DNA of 63,492 nt, the filler included, from Atractiella rhizophila (lineage: Eukaryota): NCBI GenBank assembly GCA_021432655.1. It is 12 parts of 11 records of this genome, joined end to end, with 100 filler letters (N's around TTAATTAATTAA, not from the genome) between each part and the next. Parts side by side here need not be neighbours in the genome. Positions count along the whole stretch, not along the records: positions 36,688 to 42,926 come from MU272319.1; 11 more parts are not named here. One strand, written 5' to 3'. This document shows, one piece after another, positions 34,204-56,687 of the stretch; within the stretch, counting starts at the first letter, position 1; every line of letters begins with the position of its first letter. Position numbers and translations under genes: made by a program. The notes under the pieces are model-generated. The model saw nothing but the letters and a program-made list of their open reading frames with translations, was not told the origin of the DNA and ran no database searches.

Positions 34204-36437
34204 ATGGAATTGCATCCCCCTGCCAATGCTGACGATCGCAACAGCCTCGGCAACATTCCTAATAACAACTTGAACGCAACCAATGATGTCGCCATCGATG
34301 CCCTCCAGGGAGATATCCCTCTTCAGCAAGCTGATATCGCGCTTGGAAATGGCTCCATATCTGAAGAAGCGACCGGCAAGCCAAAAAACTCGGCTGTATA
34401 CACTTGGGAGAATCGGGGGCCACCACCGACTGAGGGTGAGACGACACCAGCAAAGGTCCCAATATCATGTTTGTGCTGCAAAGCCCAGTCAGTACTCCCT
34501 TTCTCAACAAGATATCAGTTGCTTTTCTTCCATCCACCTCTTTGTCTCCCTTTCTCCGTTTTGCGCTATTCTTTTCCCTCCTTTACTCCCTCTTCCTCGT
34601 TCATTCAGCCGCGTCCACTGACGCAGTTGCGAATGGAACAGGAAGAAGAAATGTAACGGGCAAGCCAAGAGAGCATGCACCCGTTGCGTGAATAAGTGGG
34701 AGAAATGGGTTCAGACCGTTGCGAACGGAAAAGTGCAGAAGGAGAAAGAGATGGGAGTCTGCGAGTATAGGGCAAATTCGCAGTGTGTTCCTCCTTGCTG
34801 ATCTTTTATTCGTTTCGCTCCCAAGGTGCCCTCTGACTGAGTACGAATTGTTGGATAGAGAGGAGACGAACGCGATAAAGGCGCTAAGGAATAGAAAGAG
34901 CCTGGGTGGCAGCATCGAGAAGCAAGGGAACTTGATGGCGCCAAAGAGGAAGAGACTCGTTCCAGAGGATGATACGAGGAGTGAGACCAACGAGGCAGGG
35001 ATGAAGAAGATGAAGACGACCCAAAACCCTCCTGAATACCAAACTATGTCCTATGTAGGCGTCTCGAACTTGAATTGGCTTGGCAACCTTCATCATGTCA
35101 ATGCCGCACGACCCATGGCTCCTTTCTCTGCCGTCGATCCCGTAATTAATCCTTATCTAACCATACATCAGTCGCGACACGGAGGGATGGCGACTGGCGG
35201 TTTCGTACCACACCTTGCACAAAGTTGGCCCCATGTCGCGGAAATCCTTGCTCTTGGGGAAGCAAACCCATGGTCAAACCCCAGCGGTTGGAATCAGACT
35301 GCGATGAATCCAGTTGCGATGAATCCGACTTCTGCGAATCCCATTGCGATGAATCAGTCTGTAATGAATCCTACTGGGCAAGACGTTCACCTAGGGGAGC
35401 AAGCTGGAGCCATCCCTCAACTCATGTCGTACCCCACACTCTGCCATCTGAATGGCAACAATTGTCCACCGACGCCTGATTGCAGTCGAGGAGTGGATGT
35501 CCCTCTTGTCTCCAATTTTCTAGGCTGCGGGAACGGCATTAATGGACCTTTGAATGCCCAACTTGAGCCGTCGGCGTTGCCTTTCAACCAGCCCTTGAGC
35601 TCCCATCCCACGAACCTCGCGCCCCCTGCGGCGACAGCGACCGCTCTACAGCCTTTCTGGGAAAGTGGGATTCCTGTCCTTGATGGTAATATGTCATCCT
35701 GTGACACGAAAAGCGTGTCCAAGATCGACTTCGAGAACGGAGTAGGATTGAACTTCGAGTTTGGAAATCCTGCAAGGTCTGGTGTTGGAGTCGATGCTGA
35801 CATTACACCCCTCTTTGATAAAACTGGTACGATAGGAGGCGAAAGTCTGAGTCGCGTGGATCTGGACGAGTTGTTGAGAACGATCGAGGCAACTAATAAA
35901 GATCCCCTGGTTGAACATGCCCAAGCTGGAGTCGGTATGGCTGGTCAAGGAACGCAAGATTTGCCTTCCGTTCACCAAAACGCCGCTCTTGCTCAAGCAG
36001 ATATCAATGGTGGAATACACTGGCCCTCTGACATGACTTTATCTTCCTCTGCATCGTACAGTGCTGCTAAGGTCGATCAACAGACCAGTGGGGTCGTCAC
36101 CTGGGAACAACTCAGGGTAGATGGTGAAAATTTCTTCTCCCTTAATCCGAGCGTAAGGACGATGGAGGTAGAGGCGAAGGTGACTTCTGGCGTCCTCGAA
36201 GGACTCAGGTCGACGAAGGACAATGAAGATTCCCCCATCAACATCCGCTCGTCTTCCTCTCCAATCCCCTTCTCGCCTTTCTTGCCGCTTCCACAACCAG
36301 GATCTTCGTCGCAAGATCAGGAGAGCGTAGATTATAACAATGGAATTGACGAGGAATGGGATATTTCCAAGTTCTTGACTGATTCTGGAGACATTTCGGT
36401 CGACAACGTCGTTGCTACCATGTCCGACGAACAATAA
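34204..36437 (+). CDS. Zn(II)2Cys6 zinc-cluster transcription factor with long low-complexity, acidic C-terminus
   Basis: After removing intron 34488-34641: SCLCCKAQKKKCNGQAKRACTRC...CEY. Intron 34783-34825 joins the long ORF, which has an NLS-like PKRKRL and an acidic end (EEWDISKFL). Confidence 0.85.
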
Positions 36438-36730
36438 CCGTTGTGCTGTGATAGAATAGATTCAGTTACGTGTGCTATTGACTTCGATTTTTAATTGCTT
36501 GATCGTTCCTGCAAGTTCTTTTAACCTGTAATACACAGATACTCAACATACAACATTGCGAATTACCTAGTTTTCCGTTTGCCTTTCNNNNNNNNNNNNN
36601 NNNNNNNNNNNNNNNNNNNNNNNNNNNNNNNTTAATTAATTAANNNNNNNNNNNNNNNNNNNNNNNNNNNNNNNNNNNNNNNNNNNNTCTCTTGGCACAA
36701 CCTTCTCGTTTCTCCCACACTAAAGACTCT

Positions 36731-36844
36731 TGTCAGGGTTCGAGCCCCTGATATACCTTAAGTACAGACCAAGATGGGTGTAAACACCCATCATTAGCTC
36801 TTTTAGTTCAGTTGGTTAGCTGTTGGTCTGCAGCCATCTTGACA
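36731..36844. mobile_element. 114-bp solo-LTR/TRIM-like element with tRNA-like boxes
   Basis: Begins TGTCA, ends TGACA, and is flanked by a perfect 5-bp direct repeat ACTCT (36726-36730 and 36845-36849). Confidence 0.8.
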
Positions 36845-36959
36845 ACTCTATTTGGAATCATAGACTGGGAGTGTGCCTGCCCGCTACCGCTGTGGAAGGT
36901 CTGTTCGCTCCCTTCGCTCCTGCTAGGAAGGGAGCAGGAAGGGGAACCAAAGGCTATTC

Positions 36960-37213
36960 AATAAACGGGTTTGACGTCAAACTTGTTTGAGGAGCATACA
37001 TTCAAGTTCGAGCAGATCATGTTGCGAAGGTTCTTTTTAAAGAAGATGGAAGAGATAAACCCAGAATGGGCTCGGTTATATAGGAACGAGATGAGAAGGA
37101 GAGACTTTGAATTAGCGATAGAGTATTGTGACAATGAGTTTTGCGCGGATAGAGTAGATCGATGGATTGAAACAGTTGAAAGGGTCAACCATCCGGGGGT
37201 GTCCTTTGCTTGA
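36960..37213 (+). pseudogene. Orphan C-terminal fragment resembling fungal APH/phosphotransferase-like proteins
   Basis: FEQIMLRRFFLKKMEEINPEWARLY...RRDFELAIEYCDNEF..RVDRWIE resembles, from memory, the C-terminal tail of fungal APH-family proteins. No upstream kinase domain. Confidence 0.4.
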
Positions 37214-37541
37214 AAGATTGCGTTTTTGAGAAGTTGTTAATTGACTTCCTTTATTGACAAAGTTAAAGACTTTTAATTTTCACCAATAGGTGTCATTCAT
37301 CGAGAAAACCACAGGCAGTATGAGCTACATCAATGGAGAAACGTAAAACTCACTGACTAGCAATACACTGATCAGAACTTTGATCACACCATTGATGCAC
37401 ACTTAATACTTTCCCTTAGTTTGCATTGAAAGTTAGGTCATGATGTGGTCAGAAGAACCTCAGATTAACGTTTTAACACTGGTCGACATTCCCCTGTATC
37501 AGCTGCAAAAGAGATTTGGTCCTTGTGAATTGTTCCTGACT

Positions 37542-37667
37542 CTGGTTCCACAACCACGACATGAGAGGAATAAGTACAGAAACAATAGTGGTTTTATTTC
37601 AGTATAGATAATCTACACACCTGGTTCCCCAACCACGATACGAGAGGAATAAGTACAGAAACAATAG
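37542..37667. repeat. 47-bp direct duplication (37542-37588 and 37621-37667), 3 mismatches
   Basis: CTGGTTCC(A/C)CAACCACGA(C/T)A(T/C)GAGAGGAATAAGTACAGAAACAATAG read twice. Confidence 0.95.
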
Positions 37668-38649
37668 AGTGGTTGGGGAAAAGGAAAAGAAGATGGAAAC
37701 GTGTTTAAATACGTCCAACCTAGCGGTGACGTGCCATGCGCTTCGGAATAACAGACACAAAGTGCCCATGCTGAATAAAACAAATCTGCGGCATCTCTCT
37801 ACAATCTTCAATGCCTAACATCAACTTCTAACACTGCACATTATAAACAATAAACAAGAATATCTGAGCAAGGCGACATAGAGCGGCATTGTAATCATTC
37901 AAGGAGAGTTTTTGTTCCTCCCCTACTGTAAAGAAGTTACAGGGGTCTTAACGATTAGACAATGAACAAATTGAAAGAATTGATTCCTCAACTACTCAAC
38001 GTCAGCCAGAATTAGGGACTCGCGTGAATGTGAATAATTCATGAACAGTCATCATATCATTCACCAAAAGTCATGAATAAGGTGTTCATGAACCGGTGAA
38101 CTGGTGACTTTGACTGTAACATGAGCTGTGAATGTCAGGCCTGAAACTTCTTGAGTCATGGCTAGTCATGAATAAGTCACCACTTCCAGCCATGGATGGA
38201 TGGGTACGGGCACTGGGGACAATGTCGGCCGAAGTTACAGCCATTGTGATTTCCACAAGCCTCGTCTTCATGATTGACATTCACAGATTCAGCTTCGGCC
38301 CTTGTTCGACTGGCTGAGGTTTTCGAGGTGGGCTTTTCCTATCAACCAGCAAGAAGAGGCTAAATGACTGCTCTGACTGCTCAGGAGGGCACTGACACTG
38401 GCCACCCGATTTGACGAGGCTCTGATCAGCAAGCGGTCAAGGGGGGACTCCACCTCTGGTGACCTTTTTCTGCTGTATTTCCAACTTTCTCACCTAACAA
38501 CAGAACCTGTTATTGCTCCGAAGCAAAAGTGACTACTTTCAAGAAGGATAAGTTGCATTTGGACGAAGAGGCACACTTGTACCTTGACTCTCCATTTGCT
38601 TCTCTGAACATAGATCAGGGAAGCTGATATCAAATCTTGGAAATCCTCT

Positions 38650-41600
38650 GTTTGCGCGCATTATGATACTCAGATGGTTGTCAAGAAGGAAGAAGTGGAG
38701 GGAGGTGAAAAGAAGGAGGTTATTTATTATTGGTTTACTTGTAAGGAGTTTAAAGATCATGAAGTCGACCGGAATAGGGACGGATTTGCAAGTGGGGCTG
38801 CACCGACCTCGGAGCTTTTGGTAGGCGTTAAGGCATGTGAGGTAAAGCATGTGAAGTCCAGTGAGCGTTCAACAACACTGAAGGAATTTGGATATGCCTT
38901 CGGTGACAAGATTGATGGAAAGAAGAGTGGCATTCTGTACTTCCCTTACCCCCCTCAACACTTCCGATTCTGGCTCACTTTCCTCTGTGCTCGACGCAAA
39001 CCGCCGTTTAATATTGTTGAGGATTACAAGCTCCATATCATCTTCAAGATGCTTCAACCTGATGCGTACCTTATTAGTGCTGACCAAGTCTTGAAGGATC
39101 TCTAGAACATCTATACTTGAGCTACCCAGATTATTAAGGATGTTTATTTGAAGGTAGAAGTTTCTCCTAATTTTCACATCTCACTTTCTGAAAGATGTGG
39201 GACAGGACATTGACTGGTTTCATGTTTCTACTGACGCTTGGACCTCAAGGAACTACATGGCTTGGCTTGCTGTGCTGGATCATTATTGGTCAGGAACTGA
39301 GGTAAAAGAGATCATTTTAGAGTTTGTTTGGTACAGTGTTAGAGCACTGCTGTGTCCTGTATGCTGAACTTCCTCACAGGCTGAGTGATTCACACACGGG
39401 GAGATATTTGGCCGGAGAGATTGTGAAGGTGCTGGAGCGGTATGGTATTGATGGAAAAGTCAGTTTTGCATGTCCTTTGCCATGTCCATCGAATTAAACA
39501 TGGAATTAGTTGATGAGACTAGTAAGCCATAGTGCGTCAAACAAGGACACAATGGTTTCAGAACTCAAGCTCCTGCTCCCCTCCTTGAAGGGGCAAGAAT
39601 ATCAAATCTGGTGCCTTAATCATGTCCTCAACCTGGTTGCAAAGGTATGTTCCTTAGTTTCTAATCAAGTTTCTTACCTGGCATCCTTTTAGGCTCTGAT
39701 CTTGCCCTTCATGAAAGAGAAGAAAAGAAGGAAGAAGGGCGAAGAAACTGAGAGATTTGAAGATGACAGAGCTGTAAATAGCAGCAAGGAAGAGGCTGCT
39801 ATAATCGATAAGATAGTGGCAAGCCATGATGCAGTGCAGGAAGCTATGGATGATGATATTATTGAAGAGATATCTGATGAAGTATTGAAGGGACTGGAAC
39901 AGGAGGATCTGATGATAAGAGACTGAACATCGAGTTCAGTATGGAGGAGCACCAAGCTGTTCGTGGATGTGTTCAAAGGTCCATATCGCTTGATTATGTA
40001 TTCTTTCCTGAAGACATTGCAGATTTGGGAACTGTCTCACAAGATTGTTAATGGCAGCTCAATGAACCGGAATTTCAGCGTCTTGTGGAGCGATTTTACA
40101 AGGACCTCACAGATGCACGACTTCCAATCCAAGATGTTGTCACCCGGTAGAACAGTCTCTTCCTCTGGCTCGAACGAGCCCTCCTGGTCTGACAAGGTTT
40201 CAATGGTCTTACAGAACAGAGCTCATTCCAACTTAAGAGGTATGAAGTGATGGAACCCAAATGGAAAGTCCTAGGTGAATTGTGGGATGTTCTCAAGGTT
40301 TATCAATTGCTTCAATTTAATCTGTGCAAGATCTGAGCCTAGGCTGCAGCCTTTCTATTCAGCCATAGTCAAGCCATCTGCCAAGAAACGGGTGCTCCTT
40401 ACCGACGTAATCCCTTATCTCAATAAGTTTGACCATAACCTTCACAACCTCAAGCTTAACCGAAATGTGAGTCCGTTTATTCAGTTGGGTGTTTGTCACA
40501 TGATTGCAGTTCTTAATAAATATTATTCAAAGCTTGTCAGGAGACAAGCATGTATAAGTTGGCAATGGGTTCGTCTCTCTTGGTTATTATTACTGAGCTG
40601 ATGTGAACTTTTAGTGCTCCAACCTTACCACAAACTTAAGTACTACGAACACACAGGGTAGCTCACCTCCTAGATTCAAGATATTTGGGCATTGCTATTC
40701 AAAGATCTACCATCCTACTCCTTCTGTAGAAACCATAGTTGTAACTGATCTGCTGGATGAGGACTGGGGAGGATGGTGTAGTGGGCTAAGCACCAGTCCT
40801 GGCCAGCCCAAACGACGGTTTCTATGTGGCTGTGGGTTCGAATCCCACCCTTCCCACCCTGCTTGACCCACCAAGCAACCGCCCTGGCTTGACCTGGGAC
40901 ACTGACACTGACGTCAGTAGCTGAGGGTGATAACCCCTCCGGACACTGTGGGTACCACTGTGGACGCACAGTACAGGGGCGTGGTGCTGTGATGGTGCCA
41001 AGCCTCCCCTTGTTTCTTGGTGAACGCGTTTCCAATGTGCATGAGATCCGCAGCCTTCACACAAGGAGATAGGATGACATTTAGCCGAAGCTTAGAGGCA
41101 TGGTGATCACATGTGAGGTTTTAGTGGGTATTGTTCATAGAATGGAGCCCCACACTGTTCCTTTGCCGATCACGGCGGGTTCGTGCGTAAAAAGCATTTC
41201 CTCACCATAAAAAAAAAAAAAAAAAACTGGATGAGGACTCTGATGTGGAGGAACAGTTTGGACATCGAAAAGATTACCAGCAGACAGTTGAGACGGAATA
41301 TGACGAGATCAGACGGTACTTGGAAGATGACATGGAGAAGACTCGCAAGGACTTCGATGTACTGGCTTGGTGGGATGGAGAATGGCAAGGAAGCTGGTAT
41401 CCTAATCTTGCGAAGCTAGCAATAGCTGTGCTCTCCTGCCCTGGTGTGTACCATTTCCTTACTCCTTGCCTCCTGGTGACCCTTCCTTAGTGGCCAGTAC
41501 CGATGCAGAACGTGCTTTCAGTGTGGGAGGACTTCAGATCACTGGCCACCGGCACAATCTATCACAAGATTCATTCTGTGCTGCTGTGGCTTTAGGCTCC

Positions 41601-41666
41601 TGGTATGATGCTGGATTGCTTTCTGGGACAGACAAAGAGCTTTTTGATTACTTTAAGACACAGTAG
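38650..41666 (+). pseudogene. hAT transposase pseudogene (intron-containing, stops, SINE insertion)
   Basis: YYWFTC, PFNIVED, STDAWTS, HTGRYLA, CLNHVLNL, TR*NS, DVLAWW..YPNLAKLAIAVLSCP, ASTDAERAFS (hAT dimerisation domain). Confidence 0.92.
40766..41226 (+). mobile_element. tRNA-derived SINE (461 bp) nested in the hAT transposase
   Basis: A-box TGGTGTAGTGG and B-box GGTTCGAATCC at the 5' end, A18 tail (41209-41226), perfect 13-bp TSD CTGGATGAGGACT (40753-40765 and 41227-41239). Confidence 0.93.
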
Positions 41667-42157
41667 ACCTATATACACAGACAAACTAATCAGAACTACT
41701 CTTTCCCGCCCTGCTTTGTGACTGAATCATGAAGTGTCATGAATAATCACCTGAGAATCATGACTTGTCATGAATGCAATGTATGATCCGTGACATCACT
41801 GATGAATTGAACTTTGGTTGAAAAAGTCATGACTAGCTGTCATGAACTTATCATGAACTTGTCACCCGAGTCCCTGGCTAGAATGGCATGAGACTGTTGC
41901 AAACAATGCCACTCTTATGGAGGGAAGCCATGTTGAAAGTTTGAACCCACACCCGCTTTACACATCTTTCTGACTGGACAATACGTGCACATATGAGAAG
42001 CGAAAACACATCGCCAGGCCTAGCTCTTGGACAGACAAAAAGGGTTGCGGACCAGAATACTGTTTTGAATTAACCTTCTATTCGCCAAATCGAACCCACC
42101 CAACGACAACAATCAATATTTCATACGATTCAATCACTCCTCGCCCTGCTCCAATCC

Positions 42158-42346: not shown

Positions 42347-43026
42347 GTGAGTGGCTGATGTCGTGCTGAAACTTTGCGATCTGGGAATGCTCGTAACATC
42401 TGACCATGTTGCTTGCTGGGCTTCAACACAAGAGAAAGAAACTGGATTTTGTAGAGCTGCTAAAATCAAACGGTGTCTGGATTGTCTGCCGCGTGTGCAA
42501 TTGCAGTCGATATGTTTCTTCGAGATGAACCCATACCGAGTTTCATAGTAGGCAAACCATTCTTGCATCCATTCAGAGAGGCAGAGGTCGAATGTCTGTG
42601 CGAAGGGAGATTCGACGAGGCCTTCATGGATAGCCAAAGTTTGAGTCTTCTAGACTATCTGAGTTGCGTTATTTAAGTGAACTGGACTAAATTCCACACT
42701 ATGAGCTTAGCTAGCTCACACTTGCTTCCCTTCACATTGCTTTGTTCTACTTGTGGGAGAGAAAGATGAAATGGAGGTAGCTAAAAGGATTCCCGAGTCC
42801 TGGTTTTTCGACCAGGAACACGCTTTCAACGTGAATGCACCCCATTCGGCTTGTGCTTACTTTCATTCGTTGGCTTGTAACGCGAGCACCTACGGCCGCT
42901 ACCGGTGAAAATGTTGACCTGTAGACNNNNNNNNNNNNNNNNNNNNNNNNNNNNNNNNNNNNNNNNNNNNTTAATTAATTAANNNNNNNNNNNNNNNNNN
43001 NNNNNNNNNNNNNNNNNNNNNNNNNN

Positions 43027-45009
43027 CTCTCCTCCTTCACCTTTGGCACGTTAGGACGGTCCAAAGAATCTTCATATGTGATGGCGCAACTGAGCGTCAC
43101 CAACAACTCAGATACCAGCTCCGCGAACGGGACAGTACTGATATATAAGTTTCGTGCCACGTTACGGTTAAACATATCGAATTTGGCCGTGTACGCATCC
43201 GTGAGGGTATCCTTGGGATCAAAAGATTTCAGCCGACTGACGCGCTCGTCCTTCGTTAGAGCAGTAGGTCCGTGCCGGATGATCACCCACACGAGGACGT
43301 GAAGAAATGATTGGATGTCGTCGCTGGCACGGTGCTCTCGATGATAGCTCTTCAATAGTCGGAGAGACAGGAATTGGAACGTCCCCTGAGTGACCATAGG
43401 CAAATGTTCGCATTCAGCCAAAAAGGGACGTACAATTCTCTCCAGAGCCCGTGCTTCAACGTGACCTTTGACTTTCGCCAATTCCCAATCAATAAGCAGT
43501 CCACGAACCTCGTCGCCCGCCCGGACGAGGAGTATGTTTCCAAAAGAGACGTCTCGATGGAGAATCTCGGCTTTCTCGACCGCGTCGCGATGAGCTACAA
43601 TCCTTCAAAGTCGGTCTAAATGTAAATGGAGCAAAACAAGAACGTGCCGGTAAAAGCATCAGACATCACTTTTACCAGTTCCCAAGTCGACTTGAACCGA
43701 TTTAACGGCTCTCCCACCTCTTCTAATACTATCCGATAGTGTCTCAGCTTTCGGCCACCCGTCCCCTCAGCAAATTGTAGAGGATTCTGGTTGTCGACGT
43801 CCCCATGGCAGACGACGGTTGCAATGTTCCTTACTTGTTTCAATCTCAAAATTTCATAAACATCTCCCTCCTTCCCATATTCCTCCTTCCTCCAAGTGTC
43901 CTTCAGGAGAACGACCTTCTTCTCTTTGACCCAGTAAGCGTGATAGCAACGAGTGCCACGACCGACAGGCCAACGATGACTACTCGTGAAAGGCTGTGCA
44001 AAGATAAATGTTTCGGTGTCCACGATGACCTGAAAGAGATTAGCCTCCTCCTCCAATCCCAGAGCCTTCCTCGCGTTCGCAGCAGCCTTCTTTCCCTTCA
44101 CACGCTGCACCGAGGTGTCGTGTCCCCTGGCGGACTCAGGCGCATGACTAAAGCGCCAGAGAAATTCACCAAGGTGATTTTCCGGGCCATTGATCTCAAA
44201 GGCATGCGACACTCGAGTTCCAGCTCGGGAATGGCATAGTAGGCGAGCTGTGGTGGACTGAACGTAGAACGAGAAGACGCGAGTTCGTGGCTGCATGATT
44301 TGAATAGCAGTGTGGTAGAGAGCCAACTGCCCCCGAATATCCTTCCCATCATCCGTCTGATTTTCAAAATTGTGATTATCCCTTGAATCAAAAGGTGGGC
44401 TGGTGGAACCTGGCTTCACCTGTCCGAAAAGTTGTAGCTTCTTCATGTTACAGGAAGTGAAGCCTGTCTCAGCGTAGAGAGACAGATCAGGTTTGGCTAC
44501 CGACTCCTGGTAAACCTCGTGGTCGGCATCGGACGTATTCACGAGCTCCCAGCCTGCAGCGAGAAATGGCTCGAGAGCCTTGATCTGCCCTCATTCTCAG
44601 CGTCACCTTCCTCCAACAATTCAAGGCAACCCACGAGGGGACTGTATTGAGCTTTCTCCTGCTCGCCAGTCATAACATCTGGCGCGTTAAGCCTCTTGCG
44701 CTGAAAATCTTGCCGTTTTGGTAGCATGTCCACAACTTTCCCCACAGGAACCTCCTCGAATTCCCCAGCCACATCAAACTCAGCACGAGCGTAGGTGGGC
44801 TTTTGCGCGGCCAAAGATGAAGACGAATCAATTCCGCTGGCATCGATAGTAAACTTGAGTGGCGTTGGCGCGGAAAGGGGTTGTTGTTCTGAACGCTGAG
44901 AGCTGGGTTTTGATGGCGTAGACATTTTTGGGACTGTTTCAGAACTGGGTTCGGATGAGCTGTTGGGAGATTTCGGAGGCGTCTTCAAGGCAGTCTTCAA
45001 GGCAGACAT
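43027..45009 (-). CDS. Fungal-type protein kinase (FunK1 / Pkinase_fungal), 3'-truncated
   Basis: GRGTRCY, LKDTWR, HYRIVLEEVGEPLNRFKSTWELV, LHRDVSFGNILL, GLLIDWELAK, GTFQFLS, DDIQSFLHVLVW. Confidence 0.93.
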
Positions 45010-56556: not shown

Positions 56557-56687
56557 GACAGCAGGTTGCTTAAGTCACTCGACGATAGGTCGCCTCTCGA
56601 GCTTTACTTTGCTACTAGTTAATGTATGGACAGCAGGTTGCTTAAGTCACTCGACGATAGGTCGCCTCTCGAGCTTTACTTTGCTAC
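56557..56687. repeat. Perfect 59-bp direct duplication (56557-56615 and 56629-56687)
   Basis: GACAGCAGGTTGCTTAAGTCACTCGACGATAGGTCGCCTCTCGAGCTTTACTTTGCTAC twice, with a 13-bp spacer. Confidence 0.97.

Follow-up and report, generated by a model that had tools for sequence, protein, structure and literature searches.

We found that a 461-bp insertion in the genome of the basidiomycete Atractiella rhizophila (assembly GCA_021432655.1) very probably belongs to a tRNA-Leu-derived SINE family with few copies. A basidiomycete host is supported by proteins of the genome: a glycosyltransferase encoded in the window had two hits at E<=1e-30 among 723 candidates, both named from A. rhizophila (Pucciniomycotina) with 66-67% identity, and for a second protein the top Atlas cluster consisted mostly of Basidiomycota. 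The window, that is, the whole stretch of 63,492 nucleotides that was analysed, is composed of separate contigs with N spacers between them, and the element corresponds to G000:C1140:4079-4539. The features of the element and of the transposon around it are as follows (positions in the window).

38013..41876, + strand: hAT DNA transposon that carries the SINE, bounded by terminal inverted repeats and flanked by an 8-bp TSD (7 of 8 positions matching)
40753..40765, + strand: left TSD, 13 bp, CTGGATGAGGACT, an exact copy of 41227-41239
40766..40856, + strand: tRNA-Leu-derived head, as indicated by the Rfam tRNA match, the host tRNA ranking and the fold; the acceptor stem pairs positions 1-7 with 84-90 and is accompanied by a D-stem and a T-arm, and the first base is the start of the acceptor stem
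40774..40784, + strand: presumably an A-box-like Pol III motif (D-arm), read from the sequence against the box consensus
40795..40831, + strand: 37-nt segment between the D-stem and the T-stem, in which one interrupted hairpin is possible
40835..40845, + strand: putative Pol III B-box-like motif (T-loop), in a T-arm common to host tRNA-Leu genes
40857..41208, + strand: non-coding body, 352 nt, with no Rfam family over its gathering score
41209..41226, + strand: poly(A) tail, A18, uninterrupted
41227..41239, + strand: right TSD, 13 bp, CTGGATGAGGACT, an exact copy of 40753-40765

The insert at 40766-41226 lies between exact 13-bp TSD copies and ends in an uninterrupted A18, just as an earlier note on this DNA had described. 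The sequence CTGGATGAGGACT is the sole exact 13-mer repeated at a spacing of 400-520 nt among 61,329 window positions. At the head, Rfam recognised a tRNA at 40767-40856 with 31.8 bits (gathering score 29). The pairing of the acceptor stem, D-stem and T-arm was as the earlier note had it, and corresponds to the minimum-energy fold of the head. The body, for which about 350 nt had been proposed, measures 352 nt; no Rfam family exceeded its gathering score there, and the only Rfam matches belonged to the tRNA clan. None of the five overlapping frames (68-113 aa) of the 461-bp element matched Pfam, the descriptor of HDV-like ribozymes found nothing in the SINE, and the body had no match in the fetched LINE regions described below. 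Both hairpins that the earlier note named in the body exist; however, their significance was not above that of shuffled sequences, as the whole element showed no excess folding (z -0.43; 33 of 100 shuffles folded equally well), and five pieces of the head and body gave z values from -1.22 to +0.54. The element has the features by which SINE2 elements are recognised, namely a tRNA head with A and B boxes, a non-coding length within 100-600 bp, dispersal, variable-length TSDs, empty sites and a 3' poly(A) tail. The reading as a tRNA-headed, poly(A)-tailed SINE was thus borne out by the Rfam tRNA head, the non-coding body, the dispersed copies, the TSDs and the tails, and by these structural features the element is an ordinary tRNA-derived SINE.

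A search of the genome gave at least 20 matches, which were reduced to at least 11 independent insertions when split copies and copies with shared flanks were merged and the C1103 copy was left out of the count; these numbers are lower bounds, and more diverged copies may be missed. With 11 independent insertions, the objection that the element might be a single processed copy fails. TSDs flank all five insertions with both ends available, with lengths of 13 bp (the window copy), 18 bp (C295), 8 bp (C697, where the TSD is accompanied by AT-rich filler), 12 bp (C29) and 12 bp (C84), and the target sites had no obvious common motif. The head is retained in eight insertions, and all eight begin at the same G with unrelated DNA upstream. 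A poly(A) tail of A6 to A30 was present in each of the nine copies examined.

Five full-length copies differ pairwise by 2.3-6.2% (94-98% identical), and thus the family is young on the divergence of its copies; this evidence gives an age and stops short of present-day activity. From the majority state of the full-length copies, the window copy departs at 8 of 443 bases, and no identical pair was found among the independent copies. Two headless insertions, with 85-86% and 74% identity, are both tailed, and no TSD was found for either; their identity indicates that the family has an older layer. The proposal of a young, recently active family therefore holds as to youth (2.3-6.2%), but must be supplemented by this layer of headless copies at 74-86%. 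In addition, variants at position 57 of the head are common to several copies, which suggests more than one source copy.

The element surrounding the SINE is a hAT transposon, as indicated by its dimerisation domain (PF05699, 41227-41487, E 4e-8), and the SINE interrupts the transposase region directly ahead of this C-terminal domain. Empty-site hAT copies lacking 40766-41226, which the earlier note recommended looking for, were found: at nine of ten paralogous hAT loci the sequence continues uninterrupted across the site, and the tenth ends short of it. The paralogs carry three more bases at the insertion site than either copy of the TSD, which indicates that this hAT lost a codon before the SINE was inserted. 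The hAT of the window differs by 7.4-9.5% from eight paralogs, whereas the SINE copies are 2.3-6.2% apart. From the nesting, the empty paralogous sites and the lower divergence, we conclude that the SINE is younger than the hAT, in agreement with the order of insertion proposed earlier. The contrast in CpG content that had been put forward for the same purpose is present but modest, and is weak for dating: the SINE has 17 CpGs with an observed/expected ratio of 0.51, against 0.41 and 0.38 in the hAT flanks, while the ratio is 0.82 for the whole window and 0.42-0.76 in the paralogous hAT copies. CpG-directed C-to-T decay has been described for repeats of Pucciniomycotina (PMC4352252).

Could the junctions of the window copy be mis-joins of the assembly at a repeat? 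One mis-join is probable elsewhere in this assembly, in that C1103 is identical to the contig of the window copy for 4,521 bases and then continues into the flank of another copy; furthermore, in four runs no sample contig spans the junctions of the window copy. However, both flanks of the window copy are collinear with hAT paralogs that are empty at the site, and the 13-mer is identical on the two sides, with the loss of 3 nt by comparison with those paralogs. Such an arrangement would not result from a mis-join, and we regard this explanation as extremely unlikely for the window copy. As for C1103 itself (C1103:1-6627, L200), it is a chimera of the left part of that contig (window 36688-41208) and of the right flank of another SINE copy (G000:C697:16418-17265), and the switch lies inside a 104-bp identical block; it is probably a mis-join and possibly a real ectopic recombination.

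The same hAT family carries a second SINE insertion (G000:C84:32323-33796, L009), which lies at a different site and points the other way. This copy is interrupted by a 490-bp TG...CA element (a solo LTR or TRIM) flanked by a 5-bp TSD, and also by an inversion with its breakpoint at SINE position 328-330. Several other features were seen in the window. A 112-bp copy of 36726-36849, 98% identical, is present in L026; a gene for a fungal protein kinase (PF17667) lies on the - strand at 42983-44590 and runs off the contig end; direct repeats of 47 nt (37542-37588 and 37621-37667) and of 59 nt (56557-56615 and 56629-56687) each occur twice; and a 15-nt repeat unit is found at 35291-35380 within a long ORF.

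By comparison with host tRNA sequences, the head derives from tRNA-Leu. When the head was aligned with the host tRNA set, as the earlier note had advised, its best six matches were all tRNA-Leu, so that Leu genes hold the top six places among 38 distinct sequences for 11 amino acids; this sample comes from 63 scored out of 1,911 candidates, and nine amino acids are missing from it. With a covariance model of the head, Leu(AAG) ranked first among host tRNAs (36 sequence sources). A genome-wide search with the T-arm pattern (at most one mismatch) gave 20 matches, eight of them SINE heads and twelve tRNA-Leu genes, and the corresponding search with the D-arm pattern gave eight matches, all SINE, the host tRNA sample lacking nine amino acids. 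The head agrees with the host Leu(AAG) in 10 of 15 stem pairs; of the others, one has a one-sided change, four have two-sided changes and none is broken. Two of the four two-sided changes are in the D-stem, which is invariant across all five host Leu types. Host Leu paralogs likewise differ among themselves by two-sided changes, and nine amino acids were unsampled; thus, descent of the head from another, unsampled tRNA is possible. No covariation was seen among seven heads, which are very alike. The segment between the D-stem and the T-stem, which replaces the anticodon and long variable arms, is 37 nt in length as had been proposed, but it is less anomalous than the earlier description implied: in type II tRNA-Leu of this host these arms take up 27-29 nt in intron-less genes, and 51 nt in those with an intron. 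In this segment (40795..40831), the window copy has TTTCT where four of seven aligned heads have TTTTT. Elsewhere in the genome, facing pairs of tRNA-Gly(TCC) genes lie approximately 110-120 bp apart (L055-L061; G000:C287 and C616).

The head could instead be a genuine intron-containing tRNA-Leu(CAA) gene with its flank. ARAGORN without introns found no tRNA in the window, and with introns, at the default threshold, it called four of six heads as such a gene by cutting out 8 nt. However, the called intron precedes the anticodon, the anticodon stem is mismatched, and ordinary tRNA-Leu(CAA) genes exist at three loci. Moreover, there is no T-run terminator behind the head (the first T4 in the window copy is at position 354), and the 350-nt body, the tail and the TSDs travel with the head. 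A functional tRNA-Leu gene, with its canonical anticodon arm and close terminator, was therefore largely refuted, and we consider this interpretation very unlikely.

Another explanation is that the copies arose as processed pseudogenes when a functional non-coding RNA of the host, consisting of a tRNA-like head and about 350 nt of further RNA, was occasionally retroposed, in which case no self-propagating family would exist. The copy number is indeed low, and head stems that stay paired with four two-sided changes relative to tRNA-Leu(AAG) resemble the outcome of structural selection. A 151-nt contig of a soil metatranscriptome also lies on 41054-41197 with three differences, which indicates presence and not transcription. 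On the other hand, no master-like locus was found in the 20 matches, although this exclusion is incomplete, C1422 and C25 having no readable 3' end. All of the intact 3' ends carry a poly(A) tail, the position-57 variants suggest more than one source copy, and the body shows neither an Rfam match nor excess folding. A host RNA of this kind seems improbable to us, and the SINE family is the preferred interpretation.

The SINE was also sought in other samples. Five runs from four studies hold part of the element, and none reaches half of its words. In four runs examined, two that belong to one DNA sample cover all 30 bins of the element, and three contigs of that sample join other flanks at 40766; another DNA run yielded a 220-nt contig on the SINE body with three differences. 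No contig of the four runs spans the junctions of the window copy, and no empty-site joint was listed. An RNA run lacking hAT cover, and the runs X1 and X2, which lack the variants private to the window, were given no evidential weight. Two exact-pattern scans of metagenome contigs gave 0 and 0 matches.

tRNA-related elements of another kind are known in the same subphylum. Helenus TRIMs, described from Pucciniales and some Agaricomycetes (PMC10886601), have LTRs that bear tRNA-like A and B boxes, and like the present element they are tRNA-derived and mis-called as tRNA genes (PMC10886601). Since the host belongs to Pucciniomycotina, the element could be a solo LTR or a fragment of such a TRIM. 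However, Helenus elements are LTR elements with a primer-binding site, a polypurine tract and, in fungi, 5-bp TSDs (PMC10886601), none of which was seen in this SINE, where the TSDs are 8-18 bp. The SINE has a poly(A) tail and a 5'-terminal, G-rich tRNA, with no TG start and no CA end. Identity with Helenus or TRIMp3 was thus refuted by TSD length and tail, and there is hardly any chance that the element belongs to that group.

Among fungal SINEs, the closest in description are Mg-SINE of Magnaporthe, which is 472 bp, tRNA-derived and present in approximately 100 copies (PMC5063351), and SINE2-1_BG of Blumeria. Like the SINE of A. rhizophila, both are non-autonomous elements with a tRNA head, a non-coding body and nearly equal length. 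They are ascomycete elements, and their 3' ends are common with the LINEs MgL/MGR583 and Tad1-24_BG, respectively (PMC3747384). In contrast, the present SINE, compared with them by description, is from a basidiomycete, has approximately 11 insertions, and ends in poly(A) without significant similarity to a LINE tail. AfuSINE2 of Aspergillus fumigatus resembles it in low copy number, A and B boxes, length (140-493 bp) and TSDs (4-14 bp) (PMC5063351). However, the parents named for AfuSINE2 are Ala, Arg, Gly, Met, Thr and Ser tRNAs (PMC5063351), and here the parent is Leu; AfuSINE2-1a ends in ACT repeats and matches the 3' UTR of a Tad LINE (PMC5063351), whereas here the copies are poly(A)-tailed, dispersed and 94-98% identical. 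The poly(A) SINEs of mammals and flowering plants, for which 'relaxed' recognition by L1 is described (PMC3747384), are similar in their variable TSDs and in that no LINE-derived 3' end was found. Unlike in those hosts, no L1-type LINE was seen among the RT regions examined here, so that the enzyme would need to come from another clade.

Which LINE this could be was approached from the RT genes of the genome. There were 123 RT matches, and 40 apparently non-LTR or partial regions were fetched, 36 of which fall into four groups. From their domain layout, we take two groups to be Tad-like, their tails being CAA and CAT and their stem-loop conserved, one group to be CRE-like, with C tails, and one element to be RTE-like, with a poly(A) end. 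LINEs with both endonuclease and RT are present, and several have copies that are 97-99% identical. No L1-type poly(A) LINE was seen among the fetched RT regions or by a zf-RVT search for L1-type LINEs, which gave 16 matches, none over the cut-off, and six new loci that were Tad-like when checked.

The comparison of the SINE 3' end with the LINE 3' ends of the genome, suggested by the earlier note, was carried out but identified no partner. Against the 40 RT regions, blastn of the SINE gave only chance words, and a profile of the SINE family matched no LINE over 205 loci. A 3'-end pattern (at most three mismatches) gave 10 matches, nine in SINE copies and one unrelated, with a control count of 2. 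In 30 shuffle-controlled comparisons of 3' ends, the best value was p=0.01, between C295 and the CAT-tailed Tad-like end; this match, a lead at most, was noticed post hoc, for that one SINE copy only, and is not significant when corrected. The next best was p=0.044, and the window copy had p=0.10. In the young Tad-like families the 3' terminus consists of CAA or CAT repeats together with a stem-loop, and the SINE has no such stem-loop. The poly(A)-tailed RTE-like LINE was likewise rejected as a demonstrable partner, for its end is alike by eye but gave z values of -0.4 to +0.4.

The LINEs themselves had some features of their own. In both Tad-like groups (L094, L097, L098, L108, L111 and L132) the 3' end has one and the same interrupted stem-loop, after which come CAA or CAT repeats, and L104, L105, L106 and L110 are young CRE-like RT elements, with copies 97-99% identical and a short C run at the end. 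L093 (G000:C3:37283-41360) is a LINE of low copy number that carries endonuclease and RT and has a poly(A) tail; its relatives are single-ORF proteins of 1,200-1,400 aa, and those with names come from fungi, ferns, yew and a red alga. In the RTE-like LINE, the 5' UTR (L202:2147-2225; G000:C3, approximately 37150-37225) fits the descriptor of HDV-like ribozymes, which none of 100 shuffles did, and it had no Rfam ribozyme match. A second RTE-like copy (L122) lies head-to-tail behind a poly(A) end and does not fit the descriptor.

Transcription by Pol III and target-primed reverse transcription by a LINE are established SINE biology, which we here extend to this family. Driven by the internal A and B boxes of a source copy, Pol III would transcribe through the tail and into the flank. 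The acceptor stem would mark the 5' end, through trimming by RNase P or because transcription initiates at that base. By analogy with known SINEs, we infer that a host LINE is used: a resident LINE bearing an endonuclease would nick a non-specific target, prime on the A-rich 3' end and copy the RNA by target-primed reverse transcription. This LINE would most likely be Tad-like, since the Tad-like groups are young families, and possibly RTE-like. The window copy would then have landed in an already ageing hAT and gathered approximately 8 changes in 443 bases.

In yeast tRNA genes, transcription starts 10.4 +/- 1.4 nt upstream of the mature end, and T5 counts as a Pol III terminator (PMC13451320). 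Here T5 is the first T-run behind three of six host tRNA-Leu genes, and it also occurs between the A and B boxes in four of seven heads, which fits poorly with plain Pol III read-through. Unlike the upstream start of yeast tRNA genes, none of the eight head-bearing insertions has a leader. Furthermore, all 15 acceptor, D and T pairs are intact, while the anticodon domain has been rewritten. These leaderless starts (8 of 8), together with stems that are fully paired despite four two-sided changes, suggest that RNase P may trim the RNA template of the SINE at the first base of the head. Initiation at base 1 in this lineage may equally explain the leaderless 5' end; in some animal SINEs, the start lies no more than one or two bases from the tRNA-like part. 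Past the discriminator, the first bases are CC, and this might hamper tRNase Z. More broadly, we tentatively entertain the possibility, which we think less probable than its opposite, that the head is a tRNA mimic cut by RNase P, serving as both processing signal and promoter, and that a non-L1 fungal LINE copies the RNA via poly(A) alone. If RNase P does act in this manner, it would release a leaderless template from a precursor with a Pol III leader or from read-through transcripts of any kind, and the head would act as self-cleaving ribozymes do for some LINEs.

PMC5063351 lists fungal SINEs that come from ascomycetes and from an oomycete. SINEs are reported as less than 0.2% of rust genomes (PMC12210899), and 0 SINEs are given for Microbotryum (PMC4469406). 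We found no description of a SINE in Atractiellomycetes in the literature searched, repeat-library consensus sequences being outside this comparison. For Pucciniomycotina, the present elements provide a clean SINE family in which both TSDs and empty sites are seen. The family should be of use for repeat libraries, and for tRNA annotation it may be noted that ARAGORN with introns mis-calls four of six heads as tRNA-Leu(CAA). A leaderless 5' end made by RNase P, if true, would raise the importance of the family, as would, if true, a Tad-like or RTE-like LINE that copies poly(A) RNA in which the 3' tail of the LINE itself is missing.
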